From Eubacteriales bacterium (GTDB lineage Bacteria; Bacillota; Clostridia; Oscillospirales; CAG-382): 64,000 nucleotides of DNA. The notes beneath the pieces are model-generated. The model saw only the letters and a program-made list of their open reading frames with translations, was not told the DNA's origin and searched no databases. Position 1 is the stretch's first letter. The number at the start of each line of letters is the position of its first letter. This document shows, piece by piece, positions 6,612 to 41,348 of this stretch. The stretch covers positions 28,141 through 92,140 of the forward strand of contig JAZNUB010000069.1 in NCBI GenBank assembly GCA_045592105.1, given 5' to 3'. The translations under genes and the position numbers were made by a program.

Positions 6612-8372
6612 TTAAAGGCTTTCTATAATACCCGCATCGTATTTTAAAATCATTGCGGCATCAAGGTTGTCCGAGGCACCGTCGTTATTAACGTCTGCCA
6701 ACGTCTCGTCCACGTTTTCGATTATACCTGCATCGTATTTCAAAATCATTGCGGCATCAAGGTTATCAACCTCACCATCGCCGTTTACGTCGCCTTTGGT
6801 GTAGTTCGATTTAAATACTATATTTGCGTTTTCAAGAGGTTCGTTAGCATACGCAATAGATATTTGCTGCCATTCTTCCTCAGTCCCACCGTAATACACA
6901 GTTTCAAGCGAGGTGCAGCCATCGAACGCATATTCACCGATACTTGTCACACTATTCGGAATGGTTATGCTTGTAAGCGAGGTGCAGTAATCGAACGCCT
7001 CCTCACTAATGCTTGTAACGCTGTTTGGGATAGTGATGCTTGTAAGCGAGGTGCAGGCATAGAACGTATAGACACCAATGCTTGTAATTCTATTCGGAAT
7101 GGTTATGCTTGCAAGCGAAGCGCATTGAGAAAACGCACGCAAACCAATGCTTGTAACGCTATTCGGGATAGTAATGCTCGTAAGCGATCTGCAGTCATAG
7201 AACGCAGTGTCCGCAATCAATTTTGTTCCGGGTTTAAACGTGAACTCACCTTCAAAATCGCTACTAACTTCAATTAAACAGTTATCAATGTATAATACTC
7301 CATTTTCCCAATTGTTTTCATCGTTATAATAATCTGTGTTATAGAACACATCCTCACCAATGCTTGTAACGCTATCTGGGATAGTGATGCTTGTAAGCGA
7401 GTTGCAGGAATAGAACGCATAGTTACCAATGCTTATAACGCTATTCGGAATGGTTATGCTTGTAAGCGAGTTGCAGTCATAGAACGCAGAGCCGGCAATC
7501 AATTTTGTTCCGGGTTTAAACGTGAACTCACCTTCAAAATCGCTACTAACTTCAATTAAACAGTTATCAATGTATAATACTCCATTTTCCCAATTACTTG
7601 CATCGTTGTAATAAGCGGTCCCATTAAACGCACTGGAACCAATGCCTGTAACGCTATACGGGATAGTTATGCTTGTAAGAGAAGTGCAGTTACCGAACGC
7701 ATAAAGACCAATACTTGTAACGCTATTCGGAATGGTTATGCTTGTAAGCGAGTTGCAGTCATAGAACGCATAGTCACTAATGCTTGTAACGCTATCAGGG
7801 ATAGTGACGCTTGTAAGCGAGGTGCAGTCATCGAACACAGACCGACCAATGTTTGTAACGCTATCAGGGATAGTGACGCTTGTAAGTGAGGTGCAGTTCT
7901 CTAACGCAGAGGCACAGATGCTTGTAACGCTATTCGGAATGGTTATGCTTGTAAGCGAGGTGCAGTCAAAAAACGTAGAGTAACCAATTCTTGTAACGCT
8001 GTTAGGGATAGTTATGCTTGTAAGCGAGGTGCAGCCAAAGAACGCATTGTCATCAATACTTGTAACGCTATTGGGGATAGTAAGGCTTGTAAGCGAGGAG
8101 CAGCCTTTGAACGCATTCACACCAATGCTTGTAACGCCATCGTTTATAACAACGGTCTTTATTTCATCGCTGTATTGTTTCCATGCATCACCATAGGGAT
8201 AAGAAACATAATCCATCTCGCCTTCGCCGCTTATGGTAAGGGTGCCTTCGTCATCAAGAACCCAATCAAGGCTTCCCCAAGTGCCGTTTGCTTCTGTTGC
8301 CGCAGTAGCAGGAACGGTTAGAGAGCCGACGATGATTAAAACAAAAAGTAATAAGCTAACAACTCTTTTCAT
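6612..8372 (-). CDS. Secreted leucine-rich-repeat (BspA-like) protein with C-terminal tandem dockerin segments
   Basis: Signal peptide [24 protein letters not shown]. About 18 copies of the 22-aa unit [19 protein letters not shown]. The last 60 aa (nt 6615-6794) are two Ca-binding segments, [23 protein letters not shown] and [22 protein letters not shown]. Confidence 0.85.
7213..7595 (-). repeat. In-frame 282-bp direct duplication inside the LRR gene
   Basis: 7213-7313 and 7495-7595 are identical over 101 nt (offset 282 nt = 94 aa). They encode [34 protein letters not shown] twice. Confidence 0.9.
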
Positions 8373-19519: not shown

Positions 19520-21868
19520 ATGAAAAAGAATAACAAATTAAAGAAAATCGTTATTATTGTTCTCATTGTTGCTTTGGTTGCAGGCGTTGTTGCCTTTGTG
19601 TTGGGCCGCAATGACGATGCTGATGAAATCACGCTTGTTGATATACCGATTATCACATATTTCGGTGTTACAAACAGCTCTACAACACCTGAGGATATCA
19701 TCGCTGTTGAAAGAGACCTTAATAATGTACTTATCACCGATGGCTATGCAGTGAAGCTGTTCCTCGCACCTGAGGAAAGGTATGAAACCATGATTTCTTC
19801 CGCAAAAACCATGATGGATGCGTACATGGAAAACAACAAAAAAACTTCAAGCGAGAAGCTTGGCTTTGAATATAAGTTTGATTATGCAACTTCTACCTTT
19901 GAGTTTAAGTGTGATGCAGATGCCAAAACGCCCGCTGTTGTTTATAATCAGGACACTATTATAGAAATGCTTGATGACGGCAAGGAAATTTATCCTAACG
20001 TTCCTTCTATCGACGTAATGCTTGTTACTGATTATGACAATTATTTTGAAATGGCGCAAAACGGTGAGTTTACAAGGCTTAACAGTTCTCTTACCGATAT
20101 TGCAAAATCCTTGAAGCAATCCATCCCCAACGCTTTCTTTGAGGCATTAAAGCTTAACAATAGCGGCGATATATACGGCGTTCCCAGCGTTCAGGTTGTT
20201 GGCGAATACGAGTTTATGGTTTACGATAAGGATCTGCTTACAAAATACAATGTTTCTAAAAACCAGCTTTTGTCTGTTGAAGATCTTGATTCCTACCTTA
20301 AAACAGTTGCCAATGATGCAGAGGTTGACGTTATTCCTTTGCTAAACGCTCCTCAGTCTTCTCCGTTGGAGCTTTCTGATGGCAAATCCATTGGTATAAC
20401 CTTCAACGGCGCGCTTGACCTTCCTTTTAGAAATGACGATTATATGGCCTATTATGCAACTATCGCTCGTTACCGTTCTCTCGGCTATATGGGCGAGGTT
20501 GGTGCAGATATCGAAAGCTCTGATTTTGCCGTTGCTTTCTTCTCCGGTACCGAAGATGAGGTAAAGGCTCTTGCTGAAAAGACAGGCAAGAACTTGGTAT
20601 ACAACAAGTTCTCTATGCCTTACGCTACCAGCACCGAAGTTGGTGCGGCTGTTTTCTGCATCTGTGCTGAGAAGAAGTATTCTGTTAGCAAGTCTGATTT
20701 CGGTATAGACTTTGTTTGTAAGCTTAATGCGCCTAAGAGCCAAACGGATATTAAAAATATTCTTCTTTACGGTGCTTTAGGTATAAATTACGCTATTTCC
20801 GAAACCGACGGCAACGTTGAATATGCAAACGGCAATACATACAGCATGGAGAACCTTTATACCGGTCATACTCTCCACGCGCATCACGCTGTTGATAAGG
20901 GCGTTAATGCTGAATGGATAGCAAGTGCTCAAGCTCATAATCTTGACCTTGTTGTATCCAAGCTTTCCGGCTTTAAGTTTGAAACCAACGTTTATTCCGT
21001 TGACGGTTTGAACGGTGAATCTTTTAGAATAGCTGGTCCCGATTATCTTGCAGTTATGGATAACATCGTAAGCAGCATATATTCCGATTATATTAACGGT
21101 ATATCCGGCGCTGTTGACCTTGATGATTTCAACGCTCGCGTTGATGACCTTATCCGTGCAGACATTGCTAACGAGGTTCAAAAACTGTTTGAGGCTTCCG
21201 AGGAAAAGAGGATGTCTGTAACTTTCGAAGAACAGATCCGTGCAGACGAAGCTTGGATGGCTACAAAAACCGAAGAAGCTGCAAGCTCCTCTTTGTTTGA
21301 CCTTAAGGAAACCGTTAAGGCAGAGCTTACTGCTGAGCTTACCGTTATGTATAACAGCTTGGGCGTTACCGATGCTGAAGAAATAGCAACTCGTCTTAAT
21401 AAGGACATTACTGATGAGCTTATTGAAGAACGCTTGAACAAGAATTATACAGAGCAGGAAATCAAAGAAGCTGCAGAAGCTAAGCTTAACAGCTATATTG
21501 CGGGCGAGATTGCCGTTAAAATAGCTGAGTATAGAAGAACTGAGGCTTACGCTGCTACTGTAAACGCATATATTAACTCTGCTGAGTTTAATGCTATAGT
21601 TGCTGAACGCTTTGAAGACGAACGCGATGAAGCATACTTTGAAGTGTTGGACAGCGAAATTGAAGACAAGCTTTTCACATTCAGCGAAGAGATAGTTACA
21701 AAGATAGACGCTGCAATTATTGAAGCTAACGCTAAGTTTATCGCTGATAATAAGGACAAGGTTTCCGAAAAAGAGCTTTCCGAGATTACTCTTTGCGCAG
21801 GCTTTAGCGAGCTTTTGGATAATATGCTTAGATCGCAGTATTACGACCTTAAGGGCGAACCTAAATAA
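19520..21868 (+). CDS. Membrane-anchored extracellular protein, solute-binding-protein-like N-terminal half plus long acidic helical C-terminal half (hypothetical)
   Basis: N-terminal anchor KKIVIIVLIVALVAGVVAFVLG. The region 150-330 resembles family-1 extracellular solute-binding lipoproteins. The last ~280 aa are Glu/Ala/Lys-rich and predicted helical. No partner permease is adjacent. Confidence 0.6.
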   Translation: MKKNNKLKKIVIIVLIVALVAGVVAFVLGRNDDADEITLVDIPIITYFGVTNSSTTPEDIIAVERDLNNVLITDGYAVKLFLAPEERYETMISSAKTMMDAYMENNKKTSSEKLGFEYKFDYATSTFEFKCDADAKTPAVVYNQDTIIEMLDDGKEIYPNVPSIDVMLVTDYDNYFEMAQNGEFTRLNSSLTDIAKSLKQSIPNAFFEALKLNNSGDIYGVPSVQVVGEYEFMVYDKDLLTKYNVSKNQLLSVEDLDSYLKTVANDAEVDVIPLLNAPQSSPLELSDGKSIGITFNGALDLPFRNDDYMAYYATIARYRSLGYMGEVGADIESSDFAVAFFSGTEDEVKALAEKTGKNLVYNKFSMPYATSTEVGAAVFCICAEKKYSVSKSDFGIDFVCKLNAPKSQTDIKNILLYGALGINYAISETDGNVEYANGNTYSMENLYTGHTLHAHHAVDKGVNAEWIASAQAHNLDLVVSKLSGFKFETNVYSVDGLNGESFRIAGPDYLAVMDNIVSSIYSDYINGISGAVDLDDFNARVDDLIRADIANEVQKLFEASEEKRMSVTFEEQIRADEAWMATKTEEAASSSLFDLKETVKAELTAELTVMYNSLGVTDAEEIATRLNKDITDELIEERLNKNYTEQEIKEAAEAKLNSYIAGEIAVKIAEYRRTEAYAATVNAYINSAEFNAIVAERFEDERDEAYFEVLDSEIEDKLFTFSEEIVTKIDAAIIEANAKFIADNKDKVSEKELSEITLCAGFSELLDNMLRSQYYDLKGEPK

Positions 21869-25515: not shown

Positions 25516-26088
25516 ATGATAAGTTTGCGTGAAATGGAGAAAAAACTGTTATCAGGGCATATAGGCAACGGCAATGTTGTTGCGGATTTTACTATTGGTA
25601 ACGGCAACGATACGCTGTGGTTAGCAAAGCGCGTGGGCGAAAACGGATTTGTTTACGGCTTTGATATACAACAGCAGGCTGTTGATAATACTAAAGCTTT
25701 GCTTGCGGAAAACGGCGTTGAGGATAGGTGTAATATTATCTGTGACAGCCATCATAAGCTACTTGAATATATAAAAACGCCTATCAATGCAGGTGTTTTC
25801 AACCTTGGTTTTTTACCCGGTGGCGATAAAGGTATAACAACCTTGCGAGAAACTACCATACCCGCAATAAAGGATGCGATATCTTTGGTTAAGGCAGGCG
25901 GCTGCTTGCTTATAGCCGTTTATCCGGGGCATGAAGAAGGGCGGCTTGAAGGCGATATGATATGCGATATGCTTTCAAAGTATCAGCAAAAGCACCTTTC
26001 GGCGTACCGTTTTTGCGTTCTTAACGCGCCAACCTCGCCTTACTTTATTTTTATTGAAATCAGCCCTAAATACAAAGGGGAGGTATAG
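25516..26088 (+). CDS. Class I SAM-dependent methyltransferase (putative rRNA-methylase family, YtqB/MnmM-like)
   Basis: VADFTIGNGNDTLWLAK and VYGFDIQ..A motifs, about 190 aa. Start set to ATG 25516 (MISLREM). Confidence 0.7.
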   Translation: MISLREMEKKLLSGHIGNGNVVADFTIGNGNDTLWLAKRVGENGFVYGFDIQQQAVDNTKALLAENGVEDRCNIICDSHHKLLEYIKTPINAGVFNLGFLPGGDKGITTLRETTIPAIKDAISLVKAGGCLLIAVYPGHEEGRLEGDMICDMLSKYQQKHLSAYRFCVLNAPTSPYFIFIEISPKYKGEV

Positions 26089-26092
26089 CTTT

Positions 26093-26752
26093 ATGGAAGC
26101 GTTGACCCATTGTAAGCTGTTTGAGGGGATACCGCTTGCGCGCATTTTGTTGATAAAAAGCAAAATAGGTGCAATAGAATTTGGCTGCGGTAACGGCGAG
26201 GTGATAATACACCAAGGAGAAAGCACGGAAAAGCTTGGCGTTGTATTATCTGGCGAGATAGAGGCTGTTCATTATCGTTCTGACGGTACGTATACCGTTA
26301 TTTCGGTGCTTGGCGAAGGGGAAGTGTTTGCGGATTTCCTTGCCGCTGACGATACCGCGCACAGCCCCGCAACCGTTTCTGCACGCGGCGCGTGCCGTGT
26401 GTTGCTGATACCGTTTGCGGCACTGTTTTCAAGCCTTGATGGTTTTGAAGCGGAGCAACGGGTAATCCTTGCCAACCTTTCAAAAATTTATGCAGAAAAA
26501 TATTTTGAGCTTAAAGACAGGCTCGTTTGCATTTCTGCCACCACGTTGAGGGGGAAGCTTACAAATTATTTATATCTTATGAGCGAAAGAGCAGGAAGCG
26601 ATACATTTACCATACCTTTTGACAGGGACGGATTGGCGGGCTATCTTAATGCAGACCGTTCCGCACTTTCACGCGAGCTTGCGAAAATGAAAAAAGATGG
26701 GCTTATTGAATATTATAAAAACAGCTTTAAATTAAGAAACGGCAAAAAATGA
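26093..26752 (+). CDS. Crp/Fnr family transcriptional regulator
   Basis: N-terminal cNMP-binding beta-roll (LF.G......, GE.FA) and a C-terminal HTH (R..LAGYLNADRSALSRELAKMKKDGLI). AAAGGGGAGG RBS. Confidence 0.85.
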   Translation: MEALTHCKLFEGIPLARILLIKSKIGAIEFGCGNGEVIIHQGESTEKLGVVLSGEIEAVHYRSDGTYTVISVLGEGEVFADFLAADDTAHSPATVSARGACRVLLIPFAALFSSLDGFEAEQRVILANLSKIYAEKYFELKDRLVCISATTLRGKLTNYLYLMSERAGSDTFTIPFDRDGLAGYLNADRSALSRELAKMKKDGLIEYYKNSFKLRNGKK

Positions 26753-31335: not shown

Positions 31336-31364
31336 AATATATCACTAACGAATGAATTTGTCAA
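31336..31364 (-). promoter_or_regulatory. Sigma-A type promoter (TTGACA-17-TATATT) for the oxidoreductase gene
   Basis: On the minus strand: TTGACA (31364-31359), 17-nt spacer, TATATT (31341-31336). Confidence 0.55.
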
Positions 31365-31392: not shown

Positions 31393-31421
31393 TTGACAAA
31401 ATAGGATTATTATTATAAAAT
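31393..31421 (+). promoter_or_regulatory. Sigma-A type promoter (TTGACA-17-TAAAAT) for the CARF-nuclease gene
   Basis: TTGACA 31393-31398, 17-nt spacer, TAAAAT 31416-31421, 30 nt upstream of the ATG at 31451. Confidence 0.6.
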
Positions 31422-31450
31422 ATATCTACTACTGCACGGAGGTGATTTTA

Positions 31451-32665
31451 ATGACGGTTGTAGAGTTTTTTGCTTGCTCACCAATCGAGAATATGATAAG
31501 CTGTTTTTCATTGAATCCCGATAAGGTTATTTTTATCGGTAACGGCCGCCGTGTGAGGAGGCGCGTTAAATCATACGAAGCAATAGCCAAGCGTTTAGGC
31601 ATGGATGTTGTTTTTGAGTTTAAATGCGTAATGCAAAACAGCGTTAATAAGATATGCGATGCGCTTATCGAAATAGTTGAAACCGAGGCGGATTGTTGCT
31701 TTGATTTAACGGGCGGCAATGAGCTTGCGCTGGTTGCAATGGGTAAGGTTTACCAGATGTACGATGGGGAAAGGCACTTGCAAATGCAACGCTTTAATAT
31801 CGAAACAGGGCGTATTATTGACTGTGACGATGATGGCGAGCTTCCTGCAACGCATATGGGGATATTGCTAAACGGGGCAGAGAACGTTGCTTTACACGGT
31901 GGCAAGGTTGTGCAAAGCACGCGCTTGGACGATATTAGCTTTGCAGAGGATATAGCAACGCTTTGGGAGCTATGCAAAAGAAAAGCTTTATTATGGAATT
32001 CCAGTATCAATAAGCTTGGTGAGCTGTTGGCTGTTTCTCATCACGAAAACAGCGGTAAGCGTGCCGTTATTGATAAACGCCGCTGTTCAGGGCTTGTTAA
32101 TTTCCATCAGAAGCTTGAAGCTGTTAAGGATTTTGTTGGTAATCTGTGCGAAGTAGGGATGGTAACTGCTGTAAAAGATAATGCGGAAGAGTTTTCTTTT
32201 GCATATAAAAATCCCATTGTAAAAAAGTGTTTATTAAAAGCGGGCAATGTGTTGGAGCTTAAAGCTTTGCTTCTTGCGTCTACCGTTCGTGATAAAAACG
32301 GTGAAAAGCTTTATAACGATTGTTCAAGCGGCGTTGTTATTGATTGGGACGGTAAAAAGGATGAAAACGGCTTTGAAGGCACGGTAAACGAAATAGACCT
32401 GCTTTTAATGCGCGGCTTTATGCCCATTTTTATCTCCTGCAAAAACGGCGGTGTTGATGATGCAGAGCTTTATAAGCTTTCATCCGTGGCGGAAATGTTT
32501 GGCGGTAAATACGCAAAAAAGGCTTTGATCGTAACGGATTTTAACAGGAGAGGCGCATCTAAAAGCTATTTTTTAAAGCGTGCTTCTGATATGGGGATAA
32601 AAGTTATTGAAGGTGTAAATAAAATGACGGATAAGGCGTTTGCCGAACAATTATCAAAAATATAA
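31451..32665 (+). CDS. Card1/Can2-like (DUF1887-type) protein: N-terminal CARF-like domain + C-terminal PD-(D/E)xK nuclease-like domain
   Basis: ACGGAGG RBS lies 8 nt before ATG 31451. DLTGGNE loop at nt 31703-31723 (CARF-like D.TGG.K/E). C-terminal GNVLELK ... NEIDLLLMRGFMPIFISCKNG (E 32390, D 32396, K 32441) fits the restriction-endonuclease-fold E.D...(S/E)CK motif. Recall-based assignment. Confidence 0.65.
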   Translation: MTVVEFFACSPIENMISCFSLNPDKVIFIGNGRRVRRRVKSYEAIAKRLGMDVVFEFKCVMQNSVNKICDALIEIVETEADCCFDLTGGNELALVAMGKVYQMYDGERHLQMQRFNIETGRIIDCDDDGELPATHMGILLNGAENVALHGGKVVQSTRLDDISFAEDIATLWELCKRKALLWNSSINKLGELLAVSHHENSGKRAVIDKRRCSGLVNFHQKLEAVKDFVGNLCEVGMVTAVKDNAEEFSFAYKNPIVKKCLLKAGNVLELKALLLASTVRDKNGEKLYNDCSSGVVIDWDGKKDENGFEGTVNEIDLLLMRGFMPIFISCKNGGVDDAELYKLSSVAEMFGGKYAKKALIVTDFNRRGASKSYFLKRASDMGIKVIEGVNKMTDKAFAEQLSKI

Positions 32666-32672
32666 AAAGCTA

Positions 32673-32701
32673 TTGCATAATGAGGAAAAAACGGCTATAA
32701 T
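32673..32701 (+). promoter_or_regulatory. Sigma-A type promoter (TTGCAT-17-TATAAT)
   Basis: TTGCAT 32673-32678, 17-nt spacer, TATAAT 32696-32701. This makes the ACT/UPF0210 pair a separate unit from the CARF-nuclease gene. Confidence 0.55.
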
Positions 32702-32729: not shown

Positions 32730-32999
32730 ATGAACGCTGTAATAACTGTTACAGGTAAGGATAGCAAGGGCATCATAGCAAAGGTAAGCACGGTTTGTAC
32801 CGAATACGGTGCAAATATTGTTGATATTTCCCAAAGCGTTTTAAGGGATTATTTCGTTATGTTTATGATAGCCGATATCTCGGAGTTAAAGGTTAAGCTT
32901 TCTGAGTTTGTGGATATTCTCGATGCGCTTGCGGCAGATAACGCTTTAAAGATACAAACAATGCACGAAGATATATTTAATGCGATGCACAGGATATGA
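32730..32999 (+). CDS. ACT domain-containing protein (UPF0237 family)
   Basis: MNAVITVTGKDSKGIIAKVS......G.NI.DISQ.V...YF.M, 89 aa. It shows the classical pairing with a UPF0210 gene. Confidence 0.8.
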   Translation: MNAVITVTGKDSKGIIAKVSTVCTEYGANIVDISQSVLRDYFVMFMIADISELKVKLSEFVDILDALAADNALKIQTMHEDIFNAMHRI

Positions 33000-33008
33000 G
33001 GTGGCGGC

Positions 33009-34367
33009 GTGATAAATGTTGGTGATATTCTTGAAACGGTAAATATGATAAGCAACGACCATCTTGATATCCGCACTATCACAATGGGTATATCCCTTTT
33101 GGACTGTGCGGCAAAAGGTAAAGATGGTTTTGCAGCCGCTGTTTATGAAAAGATTACAAGCCGTGCCGAAAAGCTTGTTGCCGTTGGTGAAGAGATTGAA
33201 AAGGAATATGGTATACCGATAATAAATAAGCGTGTATCGGTTACTCCTATTGCAATTGCAGGTGCCTGCTTGGATGAAAAGGGCTTTGTTGAAACGGCAA
33301 AAGCAATGGATAAAGCTGCTGATACGCTGGGTATTAACTTTATAGGCGGTTACAGCACGCTTGTTCAAAAGGGGATGACTGATGCGGACAAACGCTTTAT
33401 CTCCACCATACCTGAAGCATTAGCTTCAACACAAAGAGTATGTTCCTCTGTAAACATAGGCTCCACAAAGTCGGGCATAAATATGGATGCCGTGCGTACA
33501 ATGGGCGAGGTAGTAAAAAGAACGGCTGAGCTTACTAAGGATAACGGCTCTATCGGCTGTGCAAAGCTTGTTGTATTTGCTAACGCACCGGAGGATAATC
33601 CGTTTATGGCAGGTGCTTTTCACGGCGTTAGTGAAGGTGAAACGATTCTTAACGTAGGCGTTTCCGGCCCCGGTGTTGTTAAAACCGCTATTGAAAAGCT
33701 TCGCGGTGCGGATCTTGAGGCTGTTGCCGAGGAGATTAAACGCACAGCGTTTAAGATAACGCGTGTAGGTCAGCTTGTTGCTATGGAAGCAAGCAAAAGG
33801 CTTGGCATACCCTTCGGTATAGTAGACCTTTCGTTGGCACCCACACCCGCGGTAGGCGATTCCGTTGCAGAAATTATTGAAGCGATGGGGATAGGCAGAT
33901 GCGGTGGTTGCGGTACAACTGCGGCGTTGGCAATGCTTAACGATGCCGTAAAGAAGGGCGGCGTTATGGCTTCTTCTAAAGTTGGCGGTCTTTCAGGTGC
34001 GTTTATCCCCGTTTCCGAGGATGCAGGCATGATAAGAGCGGTAAACGAAGGCGCTTTGTGCATTGAAAAGCTTGAGGCTATGACTGCTGTATGCTCCGTA
34101 GGCTTGGATATGATCGCTGTTCCCGGTGATACAACGGCTTCCGTTATATCCGCACTTATAGCGGACGAGGCGGCGATTGGCGTTATCAACGCTAAAACCA
34201 CGGCAGTTAGAGTTATACCCGCTTACGGCAAGGTTGTTGGCGACCACGTTGATTTCGGCGGCTTGCTTGGCAGTGCCCCTGTTATGCAAATCAGCAAGTG
34301 TGACCCTACGGAGTTTATCAACCGTGGTGGTTTAATTCCTGCTCCAATACATTCGCTAAAAAATTAA
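33009..34367 (+). CDS. UPF0210 (DUF711 / PFL-family) protein
   Basis: ILETV.MI....[15 protein letters not shown] and ...[12 protein letters not shown], about 450 aa, immediately after the UPF0237 ACT gene. Confidence 0.85.
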
Positions 34368-34586: not shown

Positions 34587-37500
34587 ATGAAACTAAGGCG
34601 TAGCCTGTCTGCTTTGCTGGTTGTTGTTTTGTTTATAACGATGTTTACGGCATATCCCGCAGGCTTTGTAAAGGCGGCATCCAAGCTTCAGTCCGATGTG
34701 TATTACATTGATAGAGACGGAGGCTTTATTTACGATGTTGCTGTTGGCACAACTGTTTCTCAATTAGTTAAAAACTTTAAAAATACTGATGCTGTAACAG
34801 TATCGGATAAAAACGGCAACGTTCAGGCAGACGATGCCTGCGTTGCTACAGGTTATAAGGTTACGTACGGTGACACTGTCTTTGACGTTATCGTTAAGGG
34901 CGATATTACCGGTGATGGCCTTTTGAGTTCTGCCGATGCGGTTGAGTACTCCGGATATATAAGGGCTTCAACCGTTTTAGAGGGTGCTTTTCTTCTTGCA
35001 GGCGATATCGACTATGATGGAGTTTTGGGTTCTAACGATTACTTGCTTATTAAAAAGCATATGAAGGGCGCTTTTGATATATATTCGCTAAAGCATCCCT
35101 TAACAGGTACAACCGTTACCTATACCGTTGAGTTTATAGCAGGTGCAAACGGTACATTACAGGGAACTGCAAGCTTTGTTGTAGATGATGGCTCAAGCTT
35201 TGCCGATATTGCTGTACCTACTCCTGTTGCAAATGCGGGCTATGTATTTTATGGTTGGACACCGGAATTTCCTGAAACGGTGGAAGAAAACATATCGTTT
35301 ACCGCTGTTTTTGCACGGGATGGCTCTTCTTGGCACACGCTAAGCTTCGTTGCGGGTGAAAACGGCAGCTTAACAGGCACAACGGTTATACCCGATATAT
35401 ATGACGAAACAGAATCTGAAGAAATAACGCTTCCCACTCCTGTAGCTGATCGCGGCTATAAGTTTAAGGAATGGTCTCCCGCTATACCCGAAGAGATAAC
35501 CGAAAGCGGTGTTTATACCGCTGTGTTTGAATACGACCCTACACAGTATGCAACCGTAACGTTCACGGCGGGTAACTACGGTTCGCTTGAGGGTACAACC
35601 TCTTATACCGTTCTTAAGGGTACGGCTTGGGATGAAATAGTTGTTCCCAGCTGCGTTCCTGACCGATATTATATATTCAGCTCTTGGTCTGCTGATTTCC
35701 CAAGTGTAATTAATGAGGATTTATCCTTCACAGCTAACTTCACTTCCGACCCTAACAGCTCGGTTAAAAACTATGCAAGCTCTGCCAACGGCGGTTCGTA
35801 TATAATAACCGCGGGTACTATACGCGAGGATTTTGCAGATAGCTTTGATTCAAGCTCTGCATATGGTAGTGGCTATCTTAACGATATGATTAGCTTAACC
35901 GATACTGACGATAATTGGGTAGAGGTGTCCCGTTCCTTCTCAAGGATAACCATTATGGTTAAGCTTGCACAGCCTATCACAATGACAAGTGCGGCTTTAA
36001 ACCTTGGTTTAAGATACGATTCAAGAAACCGCGTTCTTCCCGAAGAGGTAAACGTTTACGTTGGTTCAACCGCTGAAACGGCAAACACGTATTTTGGCGG
36101 AGCTTATCCCGATTCCTTTGTACAAGACGGTGAGTATGGCTACAACGTAACGATAGAAGGCAATGCCGAAAACGTTCAGTACGTGCAATTCGTTTTCGTG
36201 ATGGAAGAAACCAATAGCTTCATAGCGCGCTTTGGCGAGATAGAGGTTTACGGTTCTGTTGGCGTGATAGTTCCTACTTATAACGTTAGCTTCGTGGCAG
36301 GGCAGAATGGCTCTCTTACAGGTACAACAGATTATACCGTAGATGAAGGTACGTTGTGGAGCGTTATAACCGTCCCCACTCCCGTTCCTGCACCAGGTTA
36401 TAAGTTTACAGGGTGGACTCCTGCCATCCCCGATTCTACCGAGCCTGTTACAGATGATGTGGTATATACCGCAAGCTTTGAGTATGATAGTACTCAATGG
36501 GCAACGCTTACGTTTAACGCTGGCGAAGGTGGCTCTTTAAGCGGAAACACCTCTGTTACAGTTCTCAAGGGAGAGAGCTTTGCTAACGTAGCCGTTCCTA
36601 CCCCCGTGGCAGACGAGGGCTATGAGTTTGCAAGCTGGGCGCCTGCGCTACCTACGACTGTAACTGAAGATGCAGCCTATACTGCAACCTTCGTTGTTGA
36701 TGACAGCCAGTACGCAACCATAAGCTTCGTAGCAGGTGCTAACGGCACGATAAGCGGAACAGCAAGCTACAAGGTGCTTAAGGGTACGGCTTGGTCTGAA
36801 ATTACCGTTCCTACCTATACTGCAAACACGGGCTATAAGTTTGATTCTTGGTCTCCTGCTTTCCCAACAACTATTACATCAAATGCTACATATACCGCAA
36901 ACTTTGTTATTGACGATAGCCAATACGCAGTTATAACCTTTGTTGCGGGTGATAACGGTGCTATAAACGGCACAACAAGCTACACGGTTCTCAAGGGTAC
37001 GGCTTGGTCTGAAATTACCGTTCCCACATATACCGCAAACGCGGGCTATAAGTTTAGCGAATGGTCGCCTTCGTTCCCAACAACTATCGAAGAAAGCGCA
37101 ACTTATACGGCAAGCTTTGCATATGATGATTCACAGTGGAGCGAAATAACCTTTGTTGCAGGCGAAAACGGCACTATCAGCGGCACAACAAGCGTTACCG
37201 TTCTTAACGGTACTGCTTGGTCTCAGATAAACGTTCCTACTTATACTGCAAACCCCGGTTATAAGTTTAAGGCTTGGTCTCCTTCGTTCCCAAGCACGGT
37301 TACTTCCGATGCAACCTATACCGCAACGTTTGAATACGATGCTACTCAGCACGCAACGGTAAGCTTTGTTGCAAGCACAGGCGGCACTATAAGCGGTACA
37401 ACAAGCTTTACCGTTATTAAAGGCAGCGCGTGGAGCGCAATAACCGTTCCTACCGCAACCGCAAGTGAGGGGTATACATTCGATGGGTGGACGCCTTCGT

Positions 37501-40500
37501 TCCCCACTACAATTACGGCAGACGTAACGTTTACCGCGCAGTTCTCGCTTATCCCCACCTACGCAGTTGTATTTACCGCAGGGGATGGCGGTTCGCTTAA
37601 CGGTGATTGGTACTTTGAAGGCATCTACTCAGGCACGGTTTGGGGCGATGTTGTAACCGTTCCTGCGCCTGTTCCTAACAGTGGTTACGTGTTTGACGGT
37701 TGGTCTCCTGCTTTGCCGGATTCTAACGCAGTGATAACAGAAAACGTTACATACACGGCAGTATTTACTCCCGAGCTTCCTACTACAACCCGTCCTAACT
37801 ACGCTTCTGCGGCAAACGGCGGCTCATACGCATACGTTGCCGGTGCGGCGCTTGACACTAATAATGATACCGCGTTTACCGTTACAAGCACCGAGTCTTA
37901 TCGTAGCGGCTGGTCTAACACCTCGCTTGATTTCGGTACAGGCTTGCTCAATAACGATGCGTTGGTTACCGCAACGGACGGTGCGTGGGTTGAAAGAACG
38001 CGTGGCACTTATTCCAGCGGTTTCACTTCCACAAGCAACGTAATTGTATTGATCGTTAAGCTAAACTCTGCTAAAACTGATATCGAGCGCGTTGTTATAA
38101 ACCTCGGTACTATGCTTGGTACGTCTAACCGCGGTTTGCCAAACAGCGTTAAAGTTCAGTATTCCACTAAAACATCAATGTCCAGTAGTATGAGCTGGCG
38201 CGAGATGGGTACAGCTACCGAATTTGAAAATATAGCTTCTTACGGATACACAGCAACTATCGAAAACACCTCCTCGAGCAGATCCATTAAGTACCTGCAA
38301 ATTACACTTACTATGTCCACTTATTACGTTGGCCGTATAGGTGAAATACAGGTTCTTGGCCCGGAAACAAGTACAACTCCTCGCAAGGTTACCTTCTCTG
38401 CGGGTGAGGGCGGTACTCTTAGCGGTACAACTTCCTTTACCGTAGCTGATGGCACGTCCTGGAGCCAGATTAATGTTCCCACTCCCGTACCCAATGCAGG
38501 TTATAAGTTCTCTCATTGGTCTCCCACGCTTCCTGCTTCCACAAGCACCGTAACGAATGATGCTTCCTATGAAGCAGTATTCACCGTTGATAACGGCGGG
38601 GAAGAAAAGAACTACGCATTGTCCACCAACGGTGGTACCTATATGGTAACTACGGGTACGGTACAAACAGGCTATCCCGACACGTTTGAGTCCGATGGGG
38701 CATACGGTAGCGGTAGACTTAACGATGGCTTGATGCTTAATGCAAATGACGATGCATGGGTTGAGATCTCTCGTTCTTCTGATATGATTTCAATTACGGT
38801 TAAGCTAAGTGTAACAATAAAGATGACCAAAGCTGTTATAAACCTTGGTTTAAGAAGCGGCTCTTCCAACCGCGTACTGCCCGATAGCGTAAGCGTTTAC
38901 GCAGGCAGCACGCTTGGTACGCTTGCGTTGTTCGGCACCTCCACAAGCTTTGTTCAAGATGGCAGTTACGGGTATATCGTTACTATCAACGGCTCTGCCG
39001 AAGACGTAGCGTACGTTCGCTTCGATTGCCCGATGAGCAACTACATCGCTCGCTTCGGTGAAGTAGAGGTTTACGGCACCACAGGCCCTGTAATTCCTAC
39101 TTACAACGTAACCTTTAATGCAGGCAACCACGGTTCTCTTACAGGAACAACCGTTCAAACGGTACAAGAGGGCGCAACTTGGGCAGATATAGTTCTTCCC
39201 ACACCTGTTGCCGATGCAGGATATAAGTTTGATTCTTGGACTCCTGCGATTCCTTCTGCTACTGATGAGATCACTTCCGACCTCAACTTCACTGCTAACT
39301 TTGTTTATGATGCTTCTCAATGGTCTACCGTAACCTTCGTTGCAGGTGCTAACGGTACACTTAGCGGCACAACAAGCTTCACGGTTCTTAACGGCACCGA
39401 TTGGGGCGACATAACAGTTCCTTCTCCCAACGGCAACGATGGCTATTCCTTCACAGGCTGGTCGCCTTCGTTCCCGTCCACGGTTACAACAAGCGCAACC
39501 TACACCGCAAGCTTTGAGCTTACGCCTGTTGCTAAGTATACCATAACCTTTGTTGCGGGTAGCGGCGGTGCTTTAAGCGGTACAACCAGATTTACCGTTG
39601 AAGAGGGTACTACTTGGTCTGCTATAACAGTACCTACTACCGTTGCAAATAGCGGTTATACGTTTGTAACCTGGTCGCCTGCGTTGCCTTCCAACGATAC
39701 GGCTATTACATCTAACCTTATATTTACAGCAAGGTTTGAGGAAAGCGGCGCGCAAGCACTAAAGGGCGTTATCAACATCAACGGTATTAACGCAAGCCAA
39801 TACATAAGCGGCGGCTCTCACGTTTATACCGAGGCTTACGGTCAGTACTTCACATCTGCATACTGGAACGTATTCATTGCCAAGTACTCCGAAGCAAAGG
39901 GCGGCTATATAATTACCGAAATCCTTGATGTAGGTGCAACAAAGTCTGTTGAAGTACCTACAAACGGCATCGTTGTTGCGGTACATATGGGTGCAGAAAA
40001 TCAAGCTATTTGCTCTAACGTTGCTGTTGGCGACTTGTTGATACCCAATTCCGCAATTGACCTTGAGAACCAAACTATAACCAATGGCTACTCTTACATA
40101 AGCGTTTACACCGGGGACGGTACGCTTCCTGACGATACAGGGAATCAGGGCGGCTCAACGGATGACCCTGATGGTGGTGAATATACGCAAATCAACTATG
40201 ATGGCGTTAAAGCAATGTGGCTGTCTCAGTTTGACCTTAACGGTGTATATATGTCCGGCTCTACCCAACGTTCCGAAAGCAGCTACCGTACCTTGATGGC
40301 AACTATCCTTGATAATTGTGTAACTCTCGGTCTTAATACTATAATCATTCAGATAAGACCTAACGGGGATAGTATGTATCCTTCCGAATACTACACAATG
40401 AGTAAGTACGTTGTTGGTGCATACGGTAGAAACGCAACTTACGACCCCTTTAAGATAGTTATAGATCTCGCACATGAACGCAACCTTTCCGTTCAGGCGT

Positions 40501-41348
40501 GGATAAATCCTTTGCGTTTGATGTCTTCTTCCGATATCGCCAAGGTAAGCTCCACCTATAAGGTTGCAGAATGGTATCAAAGCTCTACCTACAATGGCAA
40601 ATACGTTGTTCTATACAATAATTACTATTATTTGAACCCCGCGTATGAAGAAGTTCGTCAGCTTATCATAGACGGTGCAGTTGAAATCTGCAACCTTTAT
40701 GACGTTGATGGCGTTCATATGGATGACTACTTCTATCCCACCACGGCTTCTTCGTTCGACTCTGCGGCGTACAATTCCTATACGGGCAGCTTGTCGCTTG
40801 CTAACTGGAGAAGACAAAATCTTAACTTGCTTGTAAGCGGCTTGTATAGCGCTATTAAGGCTGTGGATCCCGATATATTGTTCGGTATCTCTCCCGCAGG
40901 TAATATGAGCACGGTTTACAACTCTCAATACGCAGATGTTTATACTTGGTGCTCTACCGCAGGGTATATCGACTATATCTGCCCGCAGGTATACTTTGGT
41001 ATGAAGCATTCAACCCAAGGCTTTGCATCCTGCTCTACAGGCTGGTCCAACATAGTCACTCACGCAAACGTAACGCTTTACGTTGGTGTTACATTAAGCA
41101 AGGCGTTGGAAGGCTATAACGGTGGTATAGATACATATGCCGGCACCACCGAAGGTCAGTACGAATGGGTAAATAATCGTGATGTTATGAAGACCTGTCT
41201 TGAATACACGCGTGATAACCTTAGCAAGTGTACGGGCGTTGCATTCTTCTGCTATCAGTACTTCTATGATCCTATTACAGGCGCAGCAGTTGTTGAAACG
41301 GCAGAAGAGCTTAACAACTTCCTTCCCGTGCTTAAAGAAATGTGGTAA
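34587..41348 (+). CDS. Giant (2,253 aa) secreted multidomain protein: N-proximal dockerin-like module, 14 Listeria-Bacteroides-type repeats, 3 discoidin-like modules, C-terminal glycoside-hydrolase-like family 10 (GHL10) domain
   Basis: Signal peptide ...FVKAAS. Dockerin-like GDITGDGLLSSADAVEY / GDIDYDGVLGSNDYLLIKKHM at nt 34896-35069. Repeats carry the AG.NG.L.G...GY.F..W.P..P signature. Modules sit at 35769-36254, 37797-38360 and 38610-39077. The GHL10-like C-terminus (nt ~40180-41345) has MWLSQFDL, VQAWINP and DGVHMDDYFYP. Confidence 0.85.
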   Translation: MKLRRSLSALLVVVLFITMFTAYPAGFVKAASKLQSDVYYIDRDGGFIYDVAVGTTVSQLVKNFKNTDAVTVSDKNGNVQADDACVATGYKVTYGDTVFDVIVKGDITGDGLLSSADAVEYSGYIRASTVLEGAFLLAGDIDYDGVLGSNDYLLIKKHMKGAFDIYSLKHPLTGTTVTYTVEFIAGANGTLQGTASFVVDDGSSFADIAVPTPVANAGYVFYGWTPEFPETVEENISFTAVFARDGSSWHTLSFVAGENGSLTGTTVIPDIYDETESEEITLPTPVADRGYKFKEWSPAIPEEITESGVYTAVFEYDPTQYATVTFTAGNYGSLEGTTSYTVLKGTAWDEIVVPSCVPDRYYIFSSWSADFPSVINEDLSFTANFTSDPNSSVKNYASSANGGSYIITAGTIREDFADSFDSSSAYGSGYLNDMISLTDTDDNWVEVSRSFSRITIMVKLAQPITMTSAALNLGLRYDSRNRVLPEEVNVYVGSTAETANTYFGGAYPDSFVQDGEYGYNVTIEGNAENVQYVQFVFVMEETNSFIARFGEIEVYGSVGVIVPTYNVSFVAGQNGSLTGTTDYTVDEGTLWSVITVPTPVPAPGYKFTGWTPAIPDSTEPVTDDVVYTASFEYDSTQWATLTFNAGEGGSLSGNTSVTVLKGESFANVAVPTPVADEGYEFASWAPALPTTVTEDAAYTATFVVDDSQYATISFVAGANGTISGTASYKVLKGTAWSEITVPTYTANTGYKFDSWSPAFPTTITSNATYTANFVIDDSQYAVITFVAGDNGAINGTTSYTVLKGTAWSEITVPTYTANAGYKFSEWSPSFPTTIEESATYTASFAYDDSQWSEITFVAGENGTISGTTSVTVLNGTAWSQINVPTYTANPGYKFKAWSPSFPSTVTSDATYTATFEYDATQHATVSFVASTGGTISGTTSFTVIKGSAWSAITVPTATASEGYTFDGWTPSFPTTITADVTFTAQFSLIPTYAVVFTAGDGGSLNGDWYFEGIYSGTVWGDVVTVPAPVPNSGYVFDGWSPALPDSNAVITENVTYTAVFTPELPTTTRPNYASAANGGSYAYVAGAALDTNNDTAFTVTSTESYRSGWSNTSLDFGTGLLNNDALVTATDGAWVERTRGTYSSGFTSTSNVIVLIVKLNSAKTDIERVVINLGTMLGTSNRGLPNSVKVQYSTKTSMSSSMSWREMGTATEFENIASYGYTATIENTSSSRSIKYLQITLTMSTYYVGRIGEIQVLGPETSTTPRKVTFSAGEGGTLSGTTSFTVADGTSWSQINVPTPVPNAGYKFSHWSPTLPASTSTVTNDASYEAVFTVDNGGEEKNYALSTNGGTYMVTTGTVQTGYPDTFESDGAYGSGRLNDGLMLNANDDAWVEISRSSDMISITVKLSVTIKMTKAVINLGLRSGSSNRVLPDSVSVYAGSTLGTLALFGTSTSFVQDGSYGYIVTINGSAEDVAYVRFDCPMSNYIARFGEVEVYGTTGPVIPTYNVTFNAGNHGSLTGTTVQTVQEGATWADIVLPTPVADAGYKFDSWTPAIPSATDEITSDLNFTANFVYDASQWSTVTFVAGANGTLSGTTSFTVLNGTDWGDITVPSPNGNDGYSFTGWSPSFPSTVTTSATYTASFELTPVAKYTITFVAGSGGALSGTTRFTVEEGTTWSAITVPTTVANSGYTFVTWSPALPSNDTAITSNLIFTARFEESGAQALKGVININGINASQYISGGSHVYTEAYGQYFTSAYWNVFIAKYSEAKGGYIITEILDVGATKSVEVPTNGIVVAVHMGAENQAICSNVAVGDLLIPNSAIDLENQTITNGYSYISVYTGDGTLPDDTGNQGGSTDDPDGGEYTQINYDGVKAMWLSQFDLNGVYMSGSTQRSESSYRTLMATILDNCVTLGLNTIIIQIRPNGDSMYPSEYYTMSKYVVGAYGRNATYDPFKIVIDLAHERNLSVQAWINPLRLMSSSDIAKVSSTYKVAEWYQSSTYNGKYVVLYNNYYYLNPAYEEVRQLIIDGAVEICNLYDVDGVHMDDYFYPTTASSFDSAAYNSYTGSLSLANWRRQNLNLLVSGLYSAIKAVDPDILFGISPAGNMSTVYNSQYADVYTWCSTAGYIDYICPQVYFGMKHSTQGFASCSTGWSNIVTHANVTLYVGVTLSKALEGYNGGIDTYAGTTEGQYEWVNNRDVMKTCLEYTRDNLSKCTGVAFFCYQYFYDPITGAAVVETAEELNNFLPVLKEMW

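Follow-up and report, generated by a model that had tools for sequence, protein, structure and literature searches.

Nucleases of the Can2/Card1 kind, in which a CARF sensor domain is joined to a PD-(D/E)xK nuclease domain, are treated as effectors that cyclic tetra-adenylate (cA4) switches on. A gene of this kind stands by itself in a 64,000-nucleotide stretch of DNA from a Eubacteriales bacterium (contig JAZNUB010000069.1; "the window" is that whole stretch), and the question raised by this locus is what a solitary sensor nuclease responds to. The original prediction, made from the DNA alone, placed the 404-amino-acid (aa) product among the DUF1887/Card1/Can2 proteins and offered two possibilities: a signal made at a distant locus, or a CARF sensor tuned to a different, non-CRISPR ligand, which would be new biology. 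The reading tentatively preferred here is that of a divergent Can2-like, ligand-gated defence nuclease whose sensor has been retuned from cA4, with S-adenosylmethionine-AMP (SAM-AMP) as the best candidate ligand, acting in trans or as an orphan.

Profile searches and the predicted fold place the protein in the DUF1887/CARF4 class. Searches with the single sequence were weak: phmmer against the PDB returned VC1899 only at E=0.65, and Pfam PF09002 (Card1_endonuc) matched residues 289-386 at E=0.0018 with 18.3 bits, below its gathering score of 26.4. By this model, for which a precomputed match exists in about a third of the listed homologues, the window protein appears as a borderline member. 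An NCBIfam match to a DeoR fragment was set aside as spurious. The assignment therefore needed PADLOC profiles, a family profile, and a structural model. PADLOC PDLC01881 (CARF4--CARF_PDDEXK) matched residues 14-404 at E=1.3e-23, and nine further CARF4/CARF_PDDEXK models also matched. A profile of 41 family sequences searched against the PDB recovered Can2 7bdv (7e-7), VC1899 (1xmx; 4e-6), and Can2 8bao (1e-3). An AlphaFold2 model built on the alignment behind this profile (predicted local distance difference test, 90.5; predicted template-modelling score, 0.87) was compared with the PDB by Foldseek; the top 21 matches were all VC1899, Cdn1, Can2, Card1, or Can1, over the full length, with template-modelling (TM) scores of 0.42-0.73. 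The strands of the CARF domain in the model span residues 2-6, 25-30, 54-59, 81-85, 109-116, 121-124, and 152-158, and the domain is followed by an insertion (INS) domain, as described for Can2 (PMC10783487), and by the nuclease domain. Profile searches and fold comparison thus upheld the proposed CARF plus PD-(D/E)xK architecture of the DUF1887/Card1/Can2 kind. The best structural match was VC1899 of Vibrio cholerae (1XMX, the founder of DUF1887; E=7.6e-21, TM 0.67/0.71; 17% sequence identity), and the second was Cdn1 of Psychrobacter lutiphocae (9U49; E=5e-20; 16% identity). SthCan2 (7BDV), TresuCard1 (6WXW/6XL1), and Dysgonamonadaceae Can2 (8BAO), which share the three-part architecture at 13-15% identity, matched at E=1e-15 to 1e-18, and TbrCan2 (clade 1, type III-D; 8Q3Y) matched more weakly (E=1e-14).

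The nuclease motif of Can2 was defined by Jungfer et al. as E-ExD-(E/S)CK (PMC10783487). Conservation was counted over 78 family sequences that are 35-55% identical to the window protein, and E269, E314-I-D316, and S329-C-K331, which form this motif, are invariant in 78/78. E269 is equivalent to Glu304 of TbrCan2 (PMC10783487), whereas E314 and D316 are equivalent to E276/D278 of SthCan2, mutation of which kills that enzyme, and to E291/D293 of VC1899 (PMC7969007). The catalytic residues picked out from the DNA alone are therefore those mutated or described in Can2. E339 and K342 are also invariant or nearly so, and K342 lies 26 residues past D316, a spacing that appears to equal that of the catalytic K369 past D343 in TbrCan2 (as read from PMC10783487). 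The position of S329 is occupied by Glu in VC1899, which has ECK. In TbrCan2 the equivalent residue is Ser356, yet the protein is an active, cA4-switched nuclease of single-stranded DNA and RNA (PMC10783487), so the Ser variant is compatible with catalysis. TbrCan2 differs in its SxTTS sequence with a displaced Lys369, where the window protein has a canonical S-C-K, and in having kept its own cOA-binding (cyclic oligoadenylate-binding) CARF motif. Interpretations of S329 as an inactivating change or as a "migrated" acid of the Cfr10I/NgoMIV type were dropped, the Can2 consensus allowing Ser and the TbrCan2 Ser356 enzyme being active. Because the motif is complete, the Ser variant of TbrCan2 is active, and E314/D316 correspond to the essential pair of SthCan2, the nuclease is most likely competent.

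The sensor site differs from that of Can2. In a Rossmann topology, the loops after strands β1, β4, and β5 converge on the canonical ligand site, and the geometry of the pocket was read from this topology. An NxTGGTK motif that binds cOA is common to all seven Can2 clades (PMC10783487). At its position the window protein has DLTGGNE and the subfamily DxTGG(D/E)(D/E), the TGG anchor aligning unambiguously with NVTGGTK of 7bdv in the profile alignment. DLTGGNE had been proposed as the CARF ligand loop by position and form; the position stands, but the form does not, the phosphate-binding T-K being replaced by N-E. Position 85 is D in 71 sequences and G in 7 (n=78), T87 is near-invariant, and E5, N14, G88, and G89 are invariant. 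Acidic residues (D/E) occupy position 90 in 71/78, position 91 in 76/78, position 8 in 66/78, and position 31 in 48/78, and the median net charge of the CARF domain in the subfamily is -7. The contacts with cA4 that are common to Can1 and SthCan2 are S19, T42, K99, and Y118 (PMC7969007). Mapped by profile alignment and not by structure, these correspond to A8, N31, E91, and R114 of the window protein, so none of the four is conserved; the family consensus at the same positions is D, D/E, D/E, and R. A further loop of the form DxDxDG, D124-C-D-D-D128-G129, follows β6 in the subfamily; the profile alignments show no such loop in SthCan2, VC1899, or 8bao.

Taken together, these features point to a sensor pocket that is conserved and acidic. 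The site is not decaying: E5, N14, G88, and G89 do not vary, and D85 and T87 scarcely do. The ligand is probably not cA4, because the NxTGGTK motif and the four cA4 contacts have been replaced, mostly by acidic residues, and on these residues the protein should not be filed as a canonical Can2/Card1 enzyme. The remodelled pocket favours the "different ligand" branch of the original prediction. That pockets of this fold can evolve is indicated by Cdn1, a divergent member of the Can2 family with an altered ligand range comprising cA4 and its three- and six-adenylate relatives cA3 and cA6 (PMC12825302); Cdn1 is, unlike the window protein, encoded in a type III-B locus, and its binding of cyclic oligoadenylates has been kept. 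By its letters alone, the loop TGGDD(L) of most relatives (window 31712-31726) coincides with the GGDD signature of Cas10, as in SGGDDLL of the Cas10b at locus L035. This was rejected as coincidence: the loop lies in a strand-loop-helix of the AlphaFold2 model and not in a palm hairpin.

No source of a signal was found near the gene. The absence of a CRISPR or cyclase partner from the 64 kb, as originally claimed, was upheld by several scans. No CRISPR-like array was detected, the tandem repeats being coding repeats; an Rfam scan of the window returned tRNA-Pro only; PADLOC applied to the 49 open reading frames (ORFs) of the window gave no Cas10, CD-NTase, or ring nuclease among the matches listed (25 of 48 families); and a GGDD/GGDEF-type motif is absent from every window ORF of at least 100 aa. 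Pfam searches of the neighbours and the remaining ORFs identified housekeeping families only, in agreement with the claim that the gene stands alone among such genes. The gene is thus not encoded in or beside a type III locus within the 64 kb, and with no signal maker there it would either depend in trans on a locus farther away or be an orphan.

The lack of a partner is not true of the subfamily. A word-indexed search gave 240 relatives, and an exhaustive profile search gave 771 clusters (50% identity) at E<=1e-30 and 2447 at E<=1e-3. The subfamily is encoded in at least 554 GTDB species genomes and on a further 279 metagenome contigs; the best 80 genome loci are nearly all from Clostridia (Eubacteriales, Oscillospiraceae, Acutalibacteraceae, or Lachnospiraceae), mostly gut metagenome-assembled genomes (MAGs), with two labelled Bacilli. 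Type III-B or III-D systems adjoin 16/160 related loci, mostly of the CorA/DEDD type III-B kind and from five lineages less than 56% identical to each other; all of these type III-linked members keep the acidic loop. At L035 the order is Cas6, Cmr1, Cas10b, Cmr3-6, a CorA-like gene, the Can2-like gene after a 41-nt gap, a second Cas6, and a 6-repeat array, and L037 has the same order with a 24-nt gap. At L033, Cmr4-6, a DEDD-like gene, and CorA are found 6 kb upstream. Elsewhere (L099, L102, L104, L105, L107, and L117) the Can2-like gene precedes Cas6, Cmr1, Cas10b, Cmr3-6, and CorA, and DEDD follows CorA in all but L117. CorA is therefore present in nine loci (L033, L035, L037, L099, L102, L104, L105, L107, and L117) and DEDD in six (L033, L099, L102, L104, L105, and L107). 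The arrangement in a cultured Coprococcus intestinihominis (L036) is M41 peptidase, Can2-like gene, an 8-nt gap, Cas6, Csx20, Csx1, Cas10d, a Cas7-Cas5 fusion, Cas7, Csx19, and Cas7, a layout that seems to resemble the type III-D2 systems of PMC13294483.

Further features of these CRISPR-linked loci were noted. Within the regions L036:1280-12517 and L107:7966-17940, the Can2-like genes are 95% identical and head a III-D system (Csx20, Csx1, Cas7-Cas5 fusion) and a III-B system (Cmr, CorA, DEDD), respectively, so that a CRISPR module looks to have been swapped behind a constant flank. On human-gut metagenome contigs (L094, L098-L105, and L107), a single widespread element recurs with its genes in the order AAA-M41 protease, TraG-like coupling protein, Can2-like gene, Cas6, Cmr1, Cas10b, Cmr3-6, CorA, and DEDD; judging by the TraG gene, it may be carried by an integrative conjugative element. 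Small ORFs adjoining the CorA or CARF gene gave no match in PDB sequence searches.

CorA accompanied by DEDD or NrN is the hallmark of SAM-AMP signalling (PMC10600005), type III-D2 systems likewise make SAM-AMP (PMC13294483), and loci tend towards one messenger (PMC11229360). From the first two of these precedents, the Cas10 proteins of the CRISPR-linked relatives would be expected to make SAM-AMP. A SAM-AMP-type messenger is therefore the best candidate ligand, because relatives recur in CorA/DEDD III-B operons and once in a III-D operon with a Cas7-Cas5 fusion, and because the phosphate-binding residues have been lost to acidic ones. The systems built on CorA with NrN, DEDD, or SAM-AMP lyase supply the gene set that recurrently adjoins subfamily members, but CorA is a membrane channel and not a CARF protein, and none of the CorA, NrN, DEDD, or lyase genes occurs in the window. 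No mention of a Can2-type effector in CorA loci, and no CARF-family SAM-AMP receptor, was found in the searchable literature.

On the preferred reading, the product would be a sensor nuclease, probably a homodimer, whose CARF domain is coupled through the INS domain to a nuclease domain with a complete catalytic set. A small ligand would bind the conserved pocket formed by the loops after β1, β4, and β5, and, as in Can2 and Card1, binding would by allostery activate a metal-dependent nuclease that cuts RNA and/or DNA without specificity; such cutting may serve defence against phages or plasmids. In an extension of this scheme, which we think somewhat unlikely, a SAM-nucleotide messenger (SAM-AMP or SAM-AMP2) would have its first CARF-family receptor in the Clostridia-wide subfamily, with the nuclease as a second effector beside CorA and orphan copies in hundreds of gut species awaiting a trans signal. 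The acidic DxTGG(D/E)(D/E) pocket would then have evolved to hold the cationic methionine/sulfonium part of that messenger. In a bolder variant, the pocket and the DxDxDG loop would sense cation flux through CorA or RyR-type membrane partners and not a nucleotide.

Several observations weigh against the assignment of a SAM-AMP-type signal. In about 90% of the related loci, no CRISPR gene lies closer than 10 kb, and neither cas10 nor corA nor any cyclase was found in the 64-kb window. The species that encode the subfamily (at least 554) probably far exceed the carriers of type III systems, so that Cas10 products could not be its universal activator unless most copies are idle. The 95%-identical copies that precede a III-D system with the CARF-HEPN protein Csx1 (L036) and a III-B CorA system (L107) could reflect a shared island neighbourhood and not shared signalling. 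The mapping of SthCan2 residues is a profile alignment without superposed coordinates, and the pocket of the window protein (A8, N31, N90, and E91) is less acidic than the family consensus. VC1899 has an acidic pocket and showed no response to any tested cOA (PMC7969007), and by analogy the sensor might bind nothing.

Subfamily members also occur in other company. A same-strand cassette of partner genes flanks the Can2-like gene in 34/77 genome loci (e.g., L009, L016, L060, L062, L042, and L038), often with gaps of 9-27 nt, and the same partners recur in metagenome loci L085-L092. Of the 77 loci, 19 have a soluble AAA_2+AAA+Peptidase_M41 protein of 1120-1200 aa, 19 a membrane protein whose C-terminus is a RyR domain, 11 a small RyR protein, 12 YbjN-like proteins (one or two per cassette), 8 a sigma70_r2-like gene, and 7 the zinc-finger gene that comes after it; TraG (a type IV secretion coupling protein), TIR-TPR, PrsW, and HTH-AAA_28-CYTH proteins are also found near the gene. 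PADLOC recognised the AAA part alone, as IetA/DolB-like. No cyclase-type (GGDD) motif was found in the cassettes, and no description of an AAA-M41/RyR/YbjN cassette was found in the searchable literature. None of the partner genes known from other loci (AAA-M41, RyR, YbjN, sigma-like, TraG, and others) had a match in the window. At two loci (L032:2416-3720 and L023), an HTH_3 + AAA_28 + CYTH protein is encoded directly 5' of the Can2-like gene. CYTH enzymes use triphosphates and include class IV adenylate cyclases; this protein could conceivably make a signal. In one MAG (JAFSCD01, Oscillospiraceae RGIG3008), the gene is present on two contigs (L069 and L072), both times beside the same AAA-M41 and membrane RyR neighbours, so the cassette can occur twice per genome. 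An 833-aa relative (P0165) has the Can2-like protein at residues 1-416 fused to C-terminal Sel1/TPR_12-type repeats, which resemble those of the TIR_2+TPR proteins that adjoin the gene at L044, L049, L053, and L068.

The gene is vertically inherited and under purifying selection, and it evolves faster than its neighbours. In the clade of the window copy (L001-L006, L081-L083, and L084), it lies directly upstream of genes for an ACT-domain protein and DUF711 (ACT-DUF711) and of a giant surface protein gene, whereas the upstream side varies; a 99%-identical relative on a 2.7-kb contig has the same neighbours. Within this clade, flanking proteins are 83-91% identical to those of the window but the Can2-like proteins only 45-54%. 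Nonsynonymous (dN) and synonymous (dS) divergence and their ratio omega were taken from the L002-L003 pair alone, dS being saturated for most pairs. For the Can2-like gene, dN was 0.098, dS 0.97, and omega 0.10; the values were 0.029, 1.15, and 0.025 for the FAD oxidoreductase gene and 0.016, 0.96, and 0.017 for DUF711. The dN of the Can2-like gene is thus 3-6x that of flanking genes. Fast evolution is frequent among defence genes. In a neighbour-joining tree, CRISPR-linked and cassette-linked members are interleaved, and the clade of the window copy stands apart with other partner-less loci. A tblastn search gave no match in 72,556 plasmids or 50,697 phages, and none was found in IMG/VR; these searches gave no support for an origin in mobile elements or phages, or for an anti-defence role.

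An ordinary Can2, activated by cA4 or another cOA in trans to a type III locus elsewhere in the genome, is an unlikely alternative to a retuned sensor. Its fold and nuclease motif are those of Can2/Card1, some relatives lie inside type III operons, one of them with the CARF-HEPN protein Csx1 (L036), and type III loci without effectors are thought to use effectors encoded elsewhere (PMC11229360). This explanation must, however, accommodate the loss of a motif found in all seven Can2 clades (PMC10783487), the change of S19, T42, K99, and Y118 to A8, N31, E91, and R114, and acidic side chains at phosphate-binding positions, which should repel a cyclic polyphosphate. The CRISPR-linked relatives are also almost all in CorA-type loci, and in the studied case no cOA is made (PMC10600005). 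The cassettes speak instead for a conflict or stress nuclease outside CRISPR, in which the former CARF pocket would sense a non-nucleotide such as divalent cations, through its acidity and the DxDxDG loop, or be controlled by partner proteins (the AAA-M41 protease, RyR membrane proteins, YbjN-like proteins, and the sigma/anti-sigma pair), the window copy having lost these partners or never had them. The frequency of the cassette in genome loci and its recurrence in metagenome loci, the failure to find a GGDD-type cyclase in the cassettes, the nearly invariant DxDxDG form, and the position of the gene next to CorA, a cation-channel homologue, in CRISPR loci are all in keeping with this explanation. 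It is distinctly unlikely for the window gene all the same: every partner is missing there, the strand before the DxDxDG loop is antiparallel and the loop may sit away from the pocket, a metal-gated CARF domain is without experimental precedent, and the association with partners may be no more specific than clustering in defence islands.

A relic resembling VC1899, with a ligand-free sensor and a weak, unregulated nuclease in a housekeeping or other role, possibly co-transcribed with ACT-DUF711, earns little credence. In its favour, the top structural match is VC1899, a weak, cA4-independent RNase with a pocket that is hydrophobic as well as negatively charged (PMC7969007). The synteny of the gene with ACT-DUF711 is fixed in the window, L001-L006, and L081-L084, with no terminator before the ACT gene, and TieA of Helicobacter pylori is another DUF1887 nuclease that has been studied outside a CRISPR context (PMC5100599). 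On the other side, E5, N14, D85, T87, D126, and D128 are invariant or nearly so across proteins 35-50% identical, which argues for a working binding site. Omega is ~0.1, the ACT-DUF711 link is limited to one clade, and fast protein evolution and the island contexts elsewhere fit a defence role. The least probable explanation, by our estimate, is an off switch that cleaves SAM-AMP or cOA in the manner of NrN, DEDD, and ring nucleases. At L035 and L037 the gene does lie directly after corA, the slot usual for NrN, DEDD, or SAM-AMP lyase (PMC10600005), and no DEDD homologue was seen there; but the DEDD gene occurs alongside the Can2-like gene at L033, L099, L102, L104, L105, and L107, the CARF domains of Can2 are without ring-nuclease activity (PMC12825302), and the full nuclease site, with the architecture of DNA/RNA-cutting enzymes, is conserved.

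The step from the lack of a partner to new biology passes over known precedents. VC1899 is an orphan DUF1887 protein, without type III CRISPR, that is not regulated by cA4; like the window protein, it combines a negatively charged pocket unsuited to cA4 with retained nuclease residues (PMC7969007). VC1899 differs in its loop, NASCGLR, which keeps the N and a basic residue, in lacking the DxDxDG loop, and in its phylum and gene context. Panoptes type II (mCpol with CARF-TM, responding to cA3) is CARF signalling outside CRISPR-Cas (PMC13577387), but that system depends on an mCpol cyclase encoded next to it and has a membrane protein, not a nuclease, as effector. No mCpol-type palm/GGDD gene was found in the window, nor any adjoining the CARF gene in the 80 genome loci except Cas10b itself. 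Orphan DUF1887 proteins and CARF signalling outside CRISPR are thus already known, and the headline of the original prediction is not new in kind. No description was found, however, of a subfamily that combines an intact nuclease, an acidic DxTGG(D/E)(D/E) pocket, and a DxDxDG loop in gut Clostridia, in the company of CorA III-B systems and of the AAA-M41/RyR/YbjN cassette.

Hoikkala et al. assume one activator per effector family (PMC11229360). The subfamily described here is large, its nuclease is intact, and its cOA-binding residues are replaced; most copies lie outside CRISPR loci, and the CRISPR loci that do contain one are almost always of the CorA/DEDD type. If SAM-AMP is the ligand, known receptors would extend beyond CorA, and a soluble, assayable SAM-AMP reporter nuclease would be available. 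If the ligand is another, the recurrent AAA-M41/RyR/YbjN/sigma cassette suggests a conflict system, so far undescribed, with a CARF-derived sensor at its centre. In annotation, "DUF1887/Can2" matches from Clostridia should be taken neither for cA4 effectors nor for evidence of type III CRISPR. The window copy adds little context, and it is the subfamily that poses a clear question.

The 404-aa ORF of the original prediction was confirmed. The frame on the forward strand could open at 31442 or 31451 and ends at 32665, and the ATG at 31451 was taken as the start because homologues open with MT(V/I)(V/I)EFF and because of the ribosome-binding site before it (Table 1). All motif positions given with that prediction were exact (DLTGGNE, 31703-31723; E314, 32390; D316, 32396; K331, 32441). 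The transcription signals were less secure. The promoter assigned to the gene is present with 11 of 12 matches, but such sites are not statistically distinctive in this AT-rich stretch, in which 5 were found against 5.8 +/- 2.5 in shuffles; from its sequence, it is plausible as a promoter but unproven. A second site on the opposite strand (31336-31364; TTGACA-17-TATATT with a TG extension, 11/12) faces the FAD-oxidoreductase gene, and the two sites look like a divergent pair of promoters within an intergenic region of 130 nt. The separate promoter claimed for the downstream genes has a perfect -10, but its -35 matches at only 3/6, and the site falls below the scan threshold. No terminator-like hairpin was found in the interval from the stop (32665) to the start of the ACT gene (32730). 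With this and the weak downstream -35, the claim that the gene is monocistronic was not established, and read-through into ACT-DUF711 is possible.

Table 1. Features of the Can2-like gene, its product, and its immediate surroundings (window positions)
Feature	Position	Strand	Basis or remark
Promoter-like site TTGACA-17-TAAAAT	31393..31421	+	11/12 match; ~30 nt 5' of ATG
Ribosome-binding site GGAGGTG	31439..31445	+	Sequence
Coding sequence, Can2/Card1-like (DUF1887/CARF4), 404 aa + stop	31451..32665	+	Profiles, predicted fold
CARF-type Rossmann domain, aa 1-160	31451..31930	+	AlphaFold2 secondary structure, profile alignment to SthCan2 CARF, Foldseek
Loop D85-L-T-G-G-N90-E91 after β4	31703..31723	+	Positional equivalent of NxTGGTK, but acidic
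Loop D124-C-D-D-D128-G129 after β6, DxDxDG form	31820..31837	+	Subfamily-specific, nearly invariant
Helical/winged INS domain, aa 161-254, with W182-N183	31931..32212	+	AlphaFold2, alignment; W182-N183 invariant
C-terminal PD-(D/E)xK nuclease domain, aa 255-404	32213..32662	+	Pfam Card1_endonuc (below gathering score), PADLOC, profile, Foldseek
GNVLELK with E269 (first E of E-ExD-(E/S)CK), core helix	32243..32263 (E269, 32255..32257)	+	E269 invariant
N313-E314-I-D316, putative metal-binding ExD strand	32387..32398	+	Invariant
S329-C330-K331, Ser variant of (E/S)CK	32435..32443	+	Invariant, 78/78
E339-L-Y-K342-L, helix 3' of SCK strand	32465..32479	+	Invariant
TTGCAT-17-TATAAT 5' of ACT-domain gene	32673..32701	+	Perfect -10; -35 3/6
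ACT-domain gene and DUF711 gene	32730..34367	+	Conserved downstream neighbours in the clade of the window copy; context only, no functional link shown

The remainder of the window, which has a G+C content of 43%, is of a housekeeping character. Genes for a MatE protein and an FAD-dependent oxidoreductase lie upstream on the reverse strand, and the ACT-domain and DUF711 genes are followed by those for a 2253-aa surface protein and an ABC transporter. Elsewhere are encoded, among others, a P-type ATPase, a Mur ligase, rubrerythrin, phosphate and Mg/Co transporters, UPRTase, FeoB, a MutS2-like protein, ThiF, and a radical SAM enzyme. The sole recognised cyclic-nucleotide-binding domain in the window is that of a Crp/Fnr-type regulator (cNMP_binding + HTH_Crp_2; 26054-26752, forward strand), which lies 5 kb from the Can2-like gene beyond unrelated genes and is probably unconnected to it. 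A 782-aa ORF (19520-21868, forward strand) matched no Pfam family at E<=1e-5; its N-terminus holds a membrane anchor, and its long C-terminal part is acidic and coiled-coil-like. A BspA-type leucine-rich-repeat protein (6612-8372, reverse strand; Pfam LRR_5, E=6e-119) is built from 69-nt (23-aa) tandem units of 75-84% identity. The 2253-aa protein (34587-41348, forward strand), which is secreted, combines internal repeats of 213 nt with dockerin-like and Flg_new-type repeats and has a GHL10 glycoside-hydrolase-like domain at its C-terminus; it is kept at the same place in L002-L006 and L081-L083.

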